Below are positions 1 through 6,000 of a stretch of DNA of 20,117 nt, one piece after another. Position 1 is the first letter of the stretch, and each line of letters opens with the position of its first letter. The stretch covers positions 1-20,117 of the forward strand of contig JBDRUH010000024.1 in assembly GCA_039801225.1 (NCBI GenBank), given 5' to 3'. Position numbers: made by a program. This DNA comes from a candidate division WOR-3 bacterium. Lineage in GTDB: Bacteria; Hydrothermota; Tepidihabitantia; Tepidihabitantales; Tepidihabitantaceae.

Positions 1-3000
1 CAGACACCAAATCGCACCGCCTCCTGATAGAGCGCCTCGGCGATGCGCAGATTCTCCTGATAGTCGGGCTTTTTCTTTGCCATCAATTCCTCTTCAAAGC
101 GTCTCAAGAGTTCGCGGTTCTTAATCATTAAATTATATTAGCCTCTTCAGGAAAACAGTCAATGATATGTATAAGTCAAAATATATTTTCTGTCAGTCCA
201 GAGGGAGAATTTATATCTAAATCTACTGATTATAAGATATGTCACGAGCCGCTAAAGTCCTGCCCCTTGTTGCCGGTAAGAACCGAACGGGAGGGCAACA
301 CTGCAAAAAGCAACCCCGGCGATTCTGTTCTTAGAGATCCAATTTTTATTTTTCATACAATTTATCTTAAATCCGCTCTGGTGCGGGTCAAGGGTTTCAT
401 TCAGTCCAGTTGGGGCTTGGTCTTGGCGCCTCTAATCAGCGCAATTATCGCCTCTATTACCAGCCAGACCATCAGGGCAAAGACAATCCAGCCCACGCTG
501 AACAAAAGCCAGTTGTGAGTCCTTCCATACTCCTGAATGTTTTTCACCATCGCCCAGGAGGTCATTACTACTAAAAACAGTGTGGGAATCGCTGCCACCA
601 AAGGCTTTGACTTTTTGAATGTCAGATAAAGGGTAACAACAACCAGCGCAAGACCGGCAAGGAGCTGGTTGATTGTGCCAAAGAGTGGCCAGAGGATTAA
701 CGCACCCTGACCGCCAGGTTTGACCATTGCCAGACCAAACGCCGAACCAACCGCAATCAGAGTGGCAATATGCTTGCCAGTGATAAAGTTCAAGCCGGCG
801 CTCCTGCCAAACTCTTGAACGATATAACGCTGGATTCTTGCTGCGGTGTCAATCGTTGTGCCGGCAAATGAGACGATAAAAACACCCATTATTGTCATCA
901 TCAATTCGCGGACGTATCTGCCATTGCCAAAGATATAACCCATCATATTTGAGGCACCGGTAACAAAAGCCTTGAGATTTGCCGCCATACCACTTGCTGA
1001 AGACCAGTCTGAATAATGTTGTGACCATACCGCCATTCCTGCTTCCAAACCTTTACCAATAGCGCCAAAACCGGCACCAACCGCAATCAGAACCAGTGCT
1101 GCAAGGATTCCTTCAGCAATCATTCCACCGTAACCGACCAATCGGGCATCACTCTCTTTGTTAATCTGTTTGGATGCGGTGCCTGAGGTAACAAGGGAAT
1201 GGAAACCGGAGATGGCACCGCAGGCAATCGTAACAAAAAGAAATGGCCAGACCGGTGGTGCCCCCTTTGCGGAGAGATTAAAGGCGGGCGCAACAAAGCC
1301 AAGATGACCAGGGTCGCGGATGAATGCGGCAACCGCGCCGGCAAAAATCAGAACCACGGCGACCATCAACTCATGGGAGTTGATGTAATCCCTGGGCTGA
1401 AGCAGGGTTTCTACTGGCAGGACCGAGGCAACATAGGCATAAACCATCAGAATCACAATCCAGATGACAACCGCATTGTTGCCAGGAATACTCAAGGGAA
1501 TCAAAACGCCTAAAGCCACGGTGGCATACATCGCCAAAAGTGCAATCCAGGACCAAAGTTCCAGGCTTTTACCCTTCTTGAAAACCATATAGGACAAGGT
1601 TATTGCAATCGGTATCTCCATCCAGATGGGGAAAACCGAACTGGGATACATCTTGAAAAGAATCCCCATAATCATTGCGAAGATGGCAATAACCACCCAG
1701 ACTTCAAGGAAGATTATCGCCATAAAAAGAAACTTTGCCCTTTTGCCGATTACCCGGGTGGTGATTTCACCGATGGAAAGCCCCTTGTTTCTGATTGACA
1801 GAACCAGCGAGGAAAAGTCGTGGACACCGCCGAAGAAAACCGTTCCCAATGTTATCCAGAGCAAAGCCGGCACCCAACCCCAGATGACACCAATTGCAGG
1901 TCCGACAATCGGACCGAGACCGGCGATTGATGTAAAGTTATGACCCCAGACAACCCAGCGGTTGCTCGGGACATAATCACGGTCATCCCGGAAGGTGTGT
2001 GCCGGTGTCGGTCTGGAGTCGTCTAAACGGAAAACACTGCGGGAGAGAAACCCGCCGTAAATCCGATAGAAGAGTAAAAACCAAACAGCAGCCAAGACAA
2101 ATATTAAAAATGCCATTGACATTCCTCCTTGTGATTAAAAATCACGGATTTTAAAATACCGAAAGTCGCCTCTTTGTCAACAATAAAATCTTTTGCACCA
2201 AGAAAGCGTTACCGGGGACGGCGCGGGTGGTAGGGGGACTCTTGTTTCAGTATGTTCGGTTGACTGATTAAATGGATTTCCTACAATCCAGTTATGGGTA
2301 AGTTAGACCAGACTGGATTTCCAAAGGCGGATTTGAGATTCACTTTAACCGGTCCGGTGTGGTTGATGCAACCAATTCCATATTTTGGCGAGCCAGTTGA
2401 TGCCGGTTGGATTTATGAGCCGAAGTTTGATGGCTGGCGGCTGCAGATAATAAGATACCAGGATGGTAGGTTGGAATGTTGGGGTAGAAGGCTGGAAAAG
2501 AAGCCAAACTGGACCGAGAGGCTAAATCAAGTGGCCGGGCAAATTAAGGAGATTTTACCTCCTGGGTCTATTATAGATTGCGAGTTGACAACTAAGAATG
2601 GTCGCCGGTTCATCCCTTCACTTTTTGCCAAGAGTCCCAATGTGGCGCCTTTAATCTATATTTTTGATGTTATCTTTTATGAGAATGAGTTTGTTGGTGA
2701 TAAGCCATTGCTGGAGCGGAAGCGGATTATCCAAAAATTCCACTTATCAGCACCGTTTCAAATTACGGTTTGGCAACCGGTTAAGGATATTGCTCTCCAT
2801 CTAAGGGAATCGTTGAGCCAGGGTTATGAAGGGATAGTAATAAAACATTTGAACTCGCCATATGTCATTTGTCAAGATGGTCCTCTTGCAACTGAGTATT
2901 GGCGCAAAATTAAATCGGTGTTAATTAGAAGATAAGATGGCGGTAGGTAGGTTTCAAGTGATGGCAACCCTTCAGGCTGCCCGTGCCTATGTATTAGGTT

Positions 3001-6000
3001 TAGAACTTGAGTCAGCCAAGAGTTGGGGTCTGAATCGGGCGATATTTTATGCCGCAGCGAAAAAGGGTTTTATTACCGCCAGACCTGGACCACCTACTTT
3101 AAAAATTGCTGGCGCCAAGAAAGGGGTAGAAGAAATTAAAAAGTCTTTCGGGGTTTATCATTTAGGTGATGAGATGGCATATAAAGTGGAGATAGCAGGT
3201 AAAACTTTCTTTACCATCGGGTCAGAGGTTCAAACTCCAGAGCATTTCGCAAAAGAGGTTGAGAGCCGGTTTAAAGGTAAATTTGATGAGGCGTTTAAAG
3301 AGGCGGTTGAGATTATGAAAAAATATGATAAGGGTGTGCTTATGTCCCAGCACTACTTCTATGAGACGGTCTACAAACCCCGCCGGGACGAACTGGCAGA
3401 AAGGTGGACAGGATTGACGAAGTAGTCAACGCCTAATTATTCCTATACAACCCAAAACCCAGAACCGACAATAAGTGGTACGCCCCCGGAGCAAGGAGGT
3501 ATTGATGTTCTGGTGGTGTTTAGGGAGGATGATGAATATATCTCCGGGGGCGTATGGAGCTGACCAGATTCGAACTGGCGACCCCCTGCTTGCAAAGCAG
3601 GTGCTCTCCCAGCTGAGCTACAGCCCCCTGGTAATTATTATATTTTTAAAAGTTCTACTGTCAATATAGAAAATTTGCCCTCACCCTATCGTTTCCTTAA
3701 AGGAGAGAAGAAGGGAGTTGATTTCGCGCCATTCGGGTGAATCTTGGTGAAAAATTGAGCATTTCGCTTTCCAATCTTAGATAAAACTGGTGGGAAACTT
3801 TTGGTGTGAGTCCTATCGCGCCACCGGTGGCGAAGTTAATCGGTAGATAATGGAAAATGAGGAAGTCAAACCGTAGTTCCAGTCCAACACCGCTGCGCCA
3901 AGGGATTGATTCGGGTTTATGGATACAGGAGTGGAAGGATGAGACTGCCATGCCCGCATCCCAGAATAGCGCAGCGTTGATGTTGCGAAAGAACACCGGG
4001 GTTGTGCCGATGCCGCGCTCAGCCCAAAAAAGTGGTATCCGGAACTGAATTCCACCGGCAAGAATATTTGAGCCGGATGGAAAAGAATCGGTTGAAGGGT
4101 ATCCCCTTACGGTAAATAGACCTGATGAGTTGGATAAGGAGAAGGCGGTGAGCCGGGAGGAGTCGCCGAAGGCGCTGCCGAAGGTTAACTTTATTCTTCC
4201 GCTCCAGGTGGCAGGCGGACGTCCGATATATTCTGCCCAATATCCAACCAGCCGAATGAGGTTATTTTTTCCCGCTAATGGCTTTGTTTCCATATTGGTA
4301 AAGATACCCAGATTTCTTCCTTGAACCGGCGCTACGCAGAAACGGAAGGTCTGGTCATTATTGAAGCCCCAGAAACCATCAAACATTAAATTCATCCTAT
4401 CAGTCCTATTCTCAGAATTTACTCCAAAACCAATCGCTTGGGTCCAGCGGGTGGTGTAAAAAGGCAGGTAAATACCTATCCTGTCTTTCTGTGCTTCGGA
4501 GACAAAATCGGCATCAAACTGGATAATCGGGCGATAGCGATGCAACTCATAGCCAAATTGGCAAAATGGCGTCTTGGTATTAAACCTATATCCGGCTATC
4601 AACCAGTATTTGTGGAATTGTAATACATCCCATCCAAAGGAAAGGCCACCCAACTCTTTTTCCCTATTGGTGTAAGACAACCAGGGAAGCCAGAATTTGG
4701 GTAAAAGGCTCGGGTAAGGGTGGTAATAGTAGAGTTCTCCCTTGACCGCTACCGGCTGTTGTATCTTTTCTGGATAAGGGTCTTTGAACTCTTCTGCTTC
4801 GTGCCACTCCTTAAATTTCAGGTCAATGATTCCGATGTCATAACCGTTGGCAGAATATGATACCAGAGCGATTTTTTTGTTATCCGGAGAAACTGCTGGT
4901 TCAAATACGCCGTATTGAACATTGGTGCAGCGATAAAGTTTTTTGCTTTCAACTCCATAGGCATAGAGGTTATAAATTCCGGTTCGGTCCGATATGAAGA
5001 AGAGAAACTTGCCTGTCCTTGACCAAGCGGGATAAAGGTCATTGGCCCGGTCTTGGGTAATAGGAATTGTCCAGCCAGTTTTGAGGTCAATCAACTCAAT
5101 GTCAGCATATCCTCCTGGTCGCCAAACCCCTACCGCAAGGAGTCTACCTCCTGGGGAGAACTTTGGCTGGTGATACAGGGTTTTATCTTCTCCTTCGCAT
5201 ATCACCTGTTGCTCCCCGTTGTTTAAGTCCAAAATTACCAGTTCGTGCTTCCCTGAGAAGTTACGAACATATACTAAGAGGTTAGAGTCTGGAGCAAAAT
5301 CCGGGTCCTGCGCCCTTTCATTAAAGGTCAACTGTCGGACTTTTTTCGTCTCAAACTCGTAGAGGAAAATTTCGTTTTCTTCATAGCCGTTCTCTTTCAA
5401 AAGAGTCTGGGTAAAGGCAAGCCAGCGTCCATCAAAAGAGGTGGCTAAACTACCAGTTACTCTACCCCGGTATAAGACGGTGGTAGTCAATGCACCGAGG
5501 TTCAAAGCCTTGATCGCCGGCTCCTCTCTTGCAGTAAGGCAAAGATAGTAAACTTCCGCGCCATTACGAGACCAACATGGTGAACTAATGTTATAACCTT
5601 CGTAGGTAAGTGGTTTAACATTAGTTATTGGAATTTTTTTCAACTCTTTCTCAATTGAATCTACCCAAGGGATGAGTTCTTTCTGCCAGTTCTGCCAAAG
5701 AAAAGGGAAATGGGCACCAAACACCTTTTTTGCTACTCGGTTCTCAAAAAATGGTAACTGATGGGCGTTAAGAAGGTTAAACCTTTCCCAACTCAGACCG
5801 GAGTGTTTGCGGACGAGGTGCTCAAAAAAGTTGCTTCCGTAGAGATAGGGGGCGAGTGCATTTGGATAGGTTTGAAGGAAGTAACTACCACACCGGTCAA
5901 TAGGCAAAAGTCTATTTTCCTTAACCGCTGCCCTGAGCATCATCTGCCACTCAGCGCTCCGTAGGCGTCCAAAGTTGCTGAAGCGGGTTTCGTTATAGAT

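Follow-up and report, generated by a model that had tools for sequence, protein, structure and literature searches.

In the mycobacterial LigC/Prim-PolC BER module (PMC5663958), which is independent of Ku, a minimal ATP ligase is paired with a primase-polymerase that fills gaps. Catalysis by DNA ligases is described as requiring the OB domain (PMC7470946), and a conserved, selected family of OB-less ligases therefore needs a new way of holding the nick. Adenylation-only ligases that need partners have precedents in Deinococcus DR_B0100 (LigB/DdrP), reported to require partner proteins for ligation (PMC1997131, PMC6300522), and, according to PMC4366279, in the trypanosome ligases REL1 and REL2, catalytic domains whose substrate binding is provided in trans by KREPA2 and KREPA1. 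We analysed an adenylation-only ligase and its neighbour in contig JBDRUH010000024.1 of a candidate division WOR-3 bacterium (GCA_039801225.1), positions 1..20,117, hereafter the window, to which all coordinates refer. The pair, together with an archaeal fusion of the neighbouring protein, points to a DNA gap-repair system that has so far been overlooked.

A ligase reduced to its adenylation domain and its partner

The window ligase (2294..2935, + strand) is a 213-aa protein with a conserved core of about 190 aa, and consists of the adenylation (NTase) domain of an ATP-dependent DNA ligase alone, as judged from its ORF, Pfam, alignment and solved relatives. PF01068 is its sole Pfam match (E 1.9e-17, residues 37-192), and Pfam and NCBIfam profiles revealed neither an OB domain nor a DNA-binding domain. 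The motifs characteristic of ATP-dependent DNA ligases, I (K44-x-D-G), III, IIIa, IV and V, are invariant across an alignment of 28 ligases with 40 invariant columns; the C-terminal OB domain of that class is missing. The motif I lysine, K44 (E-P-K-x-D-G-W-R; 2423..2425, +), invariant in all 28 sequences, is the predicted adenylation site by analogy with established ligase chemistry, and self-adenylation and nick sealing are the activities predicted from the sequence. The protein stops six residues after motif V (W203-R-K-x-K207; 2900..2914, +), where the OB domain would start. This end point is common to the family: of 80 ligases from a metagenome scan centred on the ligase, 79 terminate 0-11 residues past motif V, the pattern being missing in one.

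The constant end point, the 40 invariant columns and the low dN/dS of the ligase in relatives (0.07-0.17; unsaturated pairs among 10 tested) rule out a pseudogene or truncation. A split gene with its OB half elsewhere was likewise rejected, as PF04679 has no match anywhere in the host genome (88.8% complete; the control was detected), and no OB domain was found in 38 longer ligase forms. Two observations were artefacts: the 416-aa ligase frame in loci L156 and L159 is an upstream frame extension rather than a fusion, and the OB-less appearance of the ligases in L107 and L108, both full length, results from a cut at the locus edge. A sigma-70-like promoter match (10/12; 2260..2287, +) ends 6 nt upstream of the ligase ATG and would predict a leaderless transcript; the match is weak, since six such sites were found against 3.3 expected in shuffles.

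One base downstream on the same strand lies the partner ORF (2937..3425, +), encoding a 162-aa basic protein (pI 9.5; family median 9.6) of alpha+beta fold, a homologue of the domain at the C-terminus of an archaeal repair-type primase-polymerase. It has no NCBIfam match, no Pfam match better than E 0.15, and 1630 homologue clusters. Its model (pLDDT 92) consists mostly of helices, together with a meander of four strands, and wide structural alignment against 48,161 chains gave a top Z of just 4.0. No solved structure was found by sequence search, by Foldseek (none better than E 0.14) or among viral models, and the Atlas matches are all <0.9. Comparison with the OB fold, Ku and PriX/PriL-CTD/PriCT yielded nothing better than Z 4.0 or E 0.14, kinship being still possible without a match. 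The first-pass annotation had described an OB-less ligase core ending at motif V beside a 162-aa protein of no family and unmatched fold (pLDDT 89, Z 4.3), with the same number of homologue clusters, and each of these points is confirmed here, with slightly different model values.

Across 117 non-redundant archaeal and bacterial partner sequences, conservation reaches 75% or more at about 40 positions, and Q13, R16 and Y146 are invariant. The most conserved motif, G31-K42 (3027..3062, +), lies on helix 2, and in two homologues an intein is inserted between the residues matching A35 and I36. The partner dN/dS is 0.03-0.16 (unsaturated pairs among 10 tested), and the pair is under purifying selection. 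None of 48 longer forms of the partner and 38 of the ligase is a ligase-partner fusion.

Linkage, spread and bacterial gap-filling enzymes

The partner falls inside the fetched flank in 71 of the 80 ligase-centred loci; four of the nine others have <500 bp downstream, and five lack it despite >3.5 kb. The partner-centred scan, on a different locus set, found the ligase in 41 of 80 loci against the 48 of 80 reported earlier; in most of the other 39 the partner is solitary and has no repair gene beside it. Among 61 genomes of the host phylum all 10 with the short ligase carry the partner (7 of 41 genomes in the earlier survey), the two genes lying on separate contigs in G048. In Caldisericota the genes co-occur, adjacent, in the same 9 of 41 genomes. 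Neither gene was found in the six genomes examined from the family of the host. A broader rule, linking the partner to ATP ligases of whatever kind, fitted the host phylum (14/15 carriers) but failed in Caldisericota, where six genomes have other ligases and no partner.

The ligase-linked partners form a single clade of the partner tree (SH-aLRT 94, in a quick tree), which reflects lateral spread rather than independent support. The recurrence in many unrelated phyla claimed in the first-pass annotation thus holds as spread and fails as independence. A tRNA-Ala gene (3555..3627, - strand), its 3' end facing the pair, lies outside the module and marks a possible insertion site. A mobile or defence element was rejected: the pair has no match in plasmid or phage records, a single viral contig carries the partner, ligases on viral contigs are only distant, and PADLOC matched none of four proteins.

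In 8 of the 41 ligase-bearing loci of the partner-centred scan, as many as noted before, the ligase carries an N-terminal domain that motifs and a profile match identify as primase-like. A PolX palm-thumb gene, already noticed beside the partner, adjoins it in L002, L004 and L213, which probably form one lineage. The host genome, at 88.8% completeness, contains neither primase-polymerase family and no PolX fragment beside the pair, in line with the earlier statement that the primase fusion is absent from it. Other genes next to the partner point to excision repair: MPG glycosylase in eight loci over two scans, and UDG, NreA, photolyase, UvrC, Hel308-like helicase and RNase HII. The possible base-excision association, with MPG and UDG adjoining the partner in some loci, is expressed in raw locus counts. 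The TIM-barrel neighbour in L018, considered as an AP endonuclease, resembles a sugar isomerase and was left out of the repair-gene count.

The partner domain in archaeal primase-polymerases

What is new here is the partner domain as the C-terminus of an archaeal primase-polymerase, an architecture present in 30 of 161 Thermoproteota genomes. The N-domain of this fusion, which lies outside the window, carries the DxD, SGxGxH and third Asp motifs and adopts the AEP fold. In structural comparison Prim-PolC comes nearest to its model (Z 20.6, rmsd 3.5, 250 aligned), with Methanocella NHEJ Pol (Z 19.9) and LigD-POL (Z 19.5) next and PriS well behind (15.4), which places the polymerase, as modelled, in the AEP fold class and among repair-type enzymes. 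Several of the archaeal fusions show decayed primase motifs, and in P0249 a second, different primase-like N-domain is fused to the partner. No Pfam or NCBIfam model covers the archaeal family, which is apparently unstudied so far; Ku-less break and gap repair is an open question in this archaeal group (PMC12019639), where the partner domain defines a repair-type primase-polymerase family.

The C-terminal PIP motif of PCNA clients is QXXhXXaa (PMC4929162). Tails resembling it are seen on 38 of 69 members of crenarchaeal type, compared with 38 of 213 proteins from neighbouring genes, and on 22 of 69 against 3 of 213 under a strict pattern; these patterns were composed after the sequences were viewed and fit the motif just loosely, the glutamine being often missing. 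Such tails are nearly absent (3/199) in the subfamily containing the window partner.

The short ligase type was not found in the 161 Thermoproteota genomes, where the partner is common, and in G216 and G223 the archaeal fusion lies directly upstream of a complete, OB-bearing ligase. Replacement of the OB domain, one of the roles suggested earlier, therefore cannot be the ancestral job of the partner; it is possible in the bacterial clade.

Role of the partner and known systems

We give an even chance to the reading in which the partner is a DNA gap- or nick-binding accessory within a Ku-independent repair module comparable to LigC/Prim-PolC and makes up in trans for what the stripped ligase misses. 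The partner would be a non-catalytic nucleic-acid-binding domain, most likely reading the 5'-phosphate side of the gap or nick. In archaea it is fused to the repair-type primase-polymerase and in many of them would also dock on PCNA. A single bacterial clade would have taken it up and combined it with a ligase cut down to the adenylation domain. The ligase would adenylate itself on K44, and the partner, presumably in contact with it, would give the DNA grip that normally comes from the OB and DNA-binding domains, allowing ligation. Gap filling might fall to the fused primase-polymerase, as in Caldisericota and kin, to a minimal PolX, or to a polymerase of the host, and in this genome the last would have to serve. 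We count for this reading the linkage, the archaeal fusion, the PIP-like tails, the repair neighbours, the basic pI, the conserved residues, the intein in the core motif and the precedents; against it, the lack in the host of either primase-polymerase family and of a PolX fragment beside the pair, lone partners, ligase loci without the partner, the split pair in G048, the decayed primase motifs, the loose PIP patterns and the lack of a ligase-partner fusion. The earlier proposal of a minimal DNA-repair module with interdependent ligase and partner is supported, the archaeal fusion, PCNA-box-like tails and repair neighbours being added evidence.

The suggestion that the partner replaces Ku, binding and bridging double-strand ends in a Ku-free NHEJ of primase-polymerase, ligase core and partner, is weakened and now seems rather unlikely. 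Ku was not found in any of the eight short-ligase carriers tested (five of the host phylum, confirming the earlier 5 of 5, and G062, G063 and G064; the genomes are incomplete and the control was detected), the primase-ligase architecture resembles LigD in all 38 long ligase forms, and the archaeal polymerase is equally close to LigD-POL and Prim-PolC. However, Ku is rare in these lineages regardless, two of five partner-only genomes (G001 and G008) also encode Ku and a LigD-type ligase, the neighbours of the partner are glycosylases and other excision-repair genes, and an OB-less core would still require an OB substitute.

The partner is of the same size as the PE domain of LigD. That it is an end-healing enzyme in the slot of that domain (phosphoesterase, deadenylase or lyase) is equally unlikely: its conserved positions and invariant residues, its frequent solitary occurrence and its intein would suit an enzyme, but the nearly invariant residues are Q, R, N, Y and D, with no conserved His or Cys and only two conserved acids. 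A Schiff-base lysine is not favoured, K28 being just 75% conserved and K42 varying to Arg; the partner matches no solved enzyme, and the OB-less ligase would be left unexplained.

Somewhat less probable still, the ligase core might act on RNA or RNA/DNA hybrids, or merely transfer AMP, with the partner as specificity subunit. OB-less cores are typical of RNA ligases (PMC4366279), some ligase members have weak PF09414 matches (E 1e-3 to 1e-6), and DRB0100 adenylates yet did not ligate alone (PMC1997131). Against this, DNA ligase profiles fit better than RNA ligase profiles, PF01068 scoring far higher; among solved structures the archaeal DNA ligases come nearest (E 8e-15), ahead of the archaeal RNA ligase Pab1020 (E 2e-3), and DNA enzymes make up the fusions and neighbours. 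A role as priming helper in the manner of PriL-CTD, PriX or PriCT, binding template and initiating nucleotide with the ligase link secondary, is improbable: primase-linker-helical-domain is the usual primase architecture (PMC5862659) and primase-like domains of two different kinds precede the partner, but the structural searches brought up none of those solved domains as a match, the fused polymerase is of repair type, and the ligase has no primase in most bacterial loci (33/41).

Returning to the gap- or nick-binding accessory, the partner, of no known fold, is the obvious candidate for the nick grip. A wider proposal is possible but doubtful: that it represents a new class of nick- or gap-sensing domain letting a DNA ligase work without an OB fold, by a grip in trans from an unrelated fold, and is the mark of a repair primase-polymerase, docked on PCNA and so far unrecognised, which about a fifth of Thermoproteota genomes encode, the pathway being an archaeal one, independent of Ku, that was later handed to bacteria. 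Both proteins are small, and many of them are from hot environments; a thermostable ligase in two components could be a useful tool.

The helical accessory domains PriL-CTD, PriX and PriCT resemble the partner in being C-terminal to a primase-polymerase, whereas the partner also works without a primase. REL1 and REL2 share the catalytic domain alone, but their partner is a true OB fold and their substrate RNA, unlike the mainly helical model here. DR_B0100, also an adenylation domain alone, is set apart by its description, as it seems to be without motif V, and its partners are polynucleotide kinase and PprA. The LigD/Ku NHEJ of bacteria and Methanocella is approached by the branch in which a primase-polymerase is fused to the ligase (motif II histidine kept in just 5 of 38 of these primase domains) and by the top NCBIfam match of the window ligase, NHEJ_ligase_lig, far below cut-off; it differs in its OB domain, Ku and phosphoesterase domain, none of which was seen in the tested carriers, where a partner of unmatched fold stands instead. 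LigC retains an OB domain, its module is not known to include a partner domain, and the polymerase here is optional, the ligase-fused one coming from another subfamily. The mycobacterial module nevertheless shares with the present one the minimal ATP ligase, in some loci here joined to a primase-polymerase, the apparent Ku independence, a possible link to MPG and other glycosylases, and, in Prim-PolC, the closest structural relative of the partner-fused archaeal polymerase.

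The adenylation-only ligase and its partner

The short ligase (window 2294-2935, plus strand, 213 aa) and its partner (window 2937-3425, plus strand, 162 aa) share a strand with a single base between their ORFs, flanked by a divergent cstA on one side and a convergent tRNA-Ala on the other. PF01068 (E 1.9e-17), the adenylation domain of ATP-dependent ligases, is the only family that the ligase matches; with every NCBIfam ligase model it scores far below the cut-off. The 28 aligned short-ligase homologues conserve motifs I (K44), III, IIIa, IV and V without exception and end just past motif V, which bears out the first-pass annotation of an adenylation domain alone. 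The same genome (88.8% complete) encodes an NAD-dependent ligase and yielded no second PF01068 match, no OB-domain match and no Ku match. Unsaturated pairs of the 10 tested gave dN/dS values of 0.07-0.17 (ligase) and 0.03-0.16 (partner), low enough to rule out gene decay as the cause of the missing OB domain. Elsewhere in the window, a perfect (12/12) sigma-70 consensus promoter lies directly upstream of the tRNA-Ala (3637-3664, minus strand), and 10606-12858, downstream of a PAS histidine kinase, encodes a response-regulator receiver domain followed by ~600 charged, repetitive, coiled-coil-like residues.

Homologues of the partner form 1630 clusters, and family searches matched it to no Pfam or NCBIfam family, as the same annotation had held. 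A confident model (pLDDT 92) displays two helices, a flexible basic linker, a four-strand meander and a helical C-terminal part; neither solved structures nor viral models gave a fold match (Z 4.0 at best). The protein is basic (median pI 9.6 in 120 homologues). Comparison of 117 non-redundant sequences shows no variation at Q13, R16 or Y146, 90-99% conservation at R5, N33, R34, Y38, K42, Q99, R150 and D151, and no conserved His or Cys. In two long forms a LAGLIDADG intein interrupts the most strongly conserved motif and is followed by Thr in place of Ile, and an intein-free allele is present in the cluster of an intein-bearing partner. Inteins favour replication-type proteins, according to PMC4760082. 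The sole viral contig with a partner homologue (L149; features at 152-2602 and 4932-5477) has a large terminase-like gene, called from sequence; the intein in that gene shares 34% identity with that of partner P0121 over 367 residues.

Linkage and spread of the pair

Among the best 80 of 99 loci from a partner-centred scan of species genomes, 41 contain the short ligase, which in 8 of the 41 bears a 240-aa N-terminal extension. The reciprocal scan of metagenomes used a profile made from partner-linked ligases, which favours that subfamily, and placed the partner inside the fetched flank in 71 of the 80 loci kept (best 80 of 211); the loci without it have <500 bp (four) or >3.5 kb (five) downstream. 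Within the organism's own phylum, Hydrothermota/WOR-3, the partner occurs in 15 and the ligase in 10 of 61 genomes, six of the latter from one genus; all 10 also carry the partner, within ~0.5 kb in eight, at 6 kb in one and on a separate contig in one. The same 9 of 41 Caldisericota genomes hold both genes, adjacent. By these scans and counts, the ligase is nearly always with the partner and the partner often without the ligase.

Both the extended ligases and the partner's presence in every own-phylum ligase carrier had been claimed at first pass, and hold. Recurrence across unrelated phyla, also claimed, stands as to several phyla but not as to independence: in a quick, midpoint-rooted tree of 114 partner domains, a single clade of 50 (SH-aLRT 94) takes in every one of the 41 ligase-linked partners. 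This clade nests among partners that stand alone and are mostly archaeal, and the primase-ligase fusions make up one sub-clade. Since the linked partners form a single clade, the spread across phyla is most readily explained by lateral transfer of a single module. None of 6 genomes from the organism's own family yielded the pair, and it turned up in 1 of 41 from the phylum containing locus L022.

Ligase and partner are adjacent yet convergent at four loci (L036, L038, L041, L202), so that linkage outlasts inversion; at L172 and L198 a small PD-(D/E)XK nuclease (PF13366) lies between them. Most neighbours of partner or ligase loci are unrelated housekeeping genes. Recurring repair neighbours include MPG (L034, L047, L061, L191, L194, L214, L216, L226), PolX palm-thumb, photolyase, UDG, NreA, UvrC, a Hel308-like helicase and a repair radical-SAM protein. 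An archaeal Hel308-like helicase adjoins the pair on one bacterial contig (L046:842-2989).

Primase-polymerase fusions

A search for longer partner forms returned 48 proteins, 46 of them ~450-aa proteins or their fragments with the partner at the C-terminus, mostly from Thermoproteota where labelled. Their N-domain has no Pfam or NCBIfam match. In the model of P0124 (pLDDT 86) it is an AEP primase-polymerase, nearest Prim-PolC (Z 20.6, rmsd 3.5, 250 aligned), then the Methanocella NHEJ polymerase (Z 19.9) and LigD-POL (19.5), with replicative PriS behind (Z 15.4). The fusion occurs in 30 of 161 Thermoproteota genomes (broken in one and truncated at a contig end in two), and a further 16, by our own count, have the partner solely in stand-alone form; the short ligase was found in none at E 1e-40 with a profile that matched strongly in the own phylum and Caldisericota. 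In two close relatives (G216, G223) the fusion is directly upstream of a complete ligase, and in two further genomes it adjoins RNase HII.

Many of the 161 genomes, roughly a third, encode a stand-alone ~300-aa paralogue of the fusion polymerase without a Pfam match; 7 of 12 fetched loci (L130, L131, L133-L136, L146) have it beside or close to a KaiC-domain ATPase (TIGR03881), two of them with a DNA ligase in the vicinity. A third form (L127-L129) has a different ~120-aa C-terminal domain of no family, the partner standing alone elsewhere in the genome.

PIP-like tails, by patterns framed after viewing the tails (consensus from PMC4929162), occur in 38/69 crenarchaeal-type members against 38/213 neighbouring proteins (loose) or 22/69 against 3/213 (strict), and are nearly absent from the subfamily of the window's partner (3/199). 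Eleven archaeal fusions have decayed primase motifs and a retained partner domain (P0228, P0235, P0239, P0246, P0247, P0256, P0276, P0282, P0286, P0300, P0314), most with the tail.

The primase domain fused to bacterial ligases shows a distant relationship to its archaeal counterpart, with which its three motifs line up in register (probability 79.5). Both of its acidic motifs are retained; it may be weakened, judging by the usual roles of AEP motifs, because the motif II histidine is kept in only 5/38. The primase-like domain joined to the partner in P0249 is a different one, closer to the domain fused to bacterial ligases than to the archaeal.

Predicted role and relation to known systems

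The OB domain is reported essential in DNA ligases in PMC7470946, where viral ligase deletion mutants keep binding and lose catalysis; an OB-less ligase under selection would thus need help. We give an even chance to the prediction that the partner binds the common substrate of its companions, a gap or nick that bears a 5'-phosphate. This is the simplest reading, since one domain accompanies an archaeal gap-filling polymerase and a bacterial stripped ligase or stripped PolX. The minimal PolX here presumably lacks the 5'-phosphate-binding 8-kDa domain. The earlier proposal that the partner replaces Ku appears unlikely, and G001 and G008, two genomes that encode Ku alongside it, speak against it. 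An end-healing enzyme is just as doubtful; the conserved residues look more like a nucleic-acid- or phosphate-binding surface than like a metal-dependent active site. That the ligase is RNA-directed seems less probable still: its closest solved relatives are archaeal DNA ligases (E 8e-15), with LigD ligase second (E 1e-9) and, most distant of these, the archaeal RNA ligase Pab1020 (E 2e-3). A role as priming helper is the most improbable. Contact of the partner with the ligase, DNA binding and ligation are predicted functions.

The pair is real and conserved and, as far as we have searched, undescribed: a putative repair module built around an apparently new fold. Neither the partner fold, the short-ligase family nor the archaeal polymerase fusion was found in the literature searched, which took in few subscription papers, and an earlier name may exist; a size cut-off dropped small ligases from a ligase network survey (PMC7470946). 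Earlier reports describe DR_B0100, an adenylation-only ligase needing partners (PMC1997131, PMC6300522), and REL1, one whose OB fold is supplied in trans (PMC4366279), so the principle of a partner-dependent adenylation-only ligase is not new. The pair is not the LigD/Ku system. LigC/Prim-PolC would be most alike in its working, but the short ligase differs by its missing OB domain and is therefore not a member.
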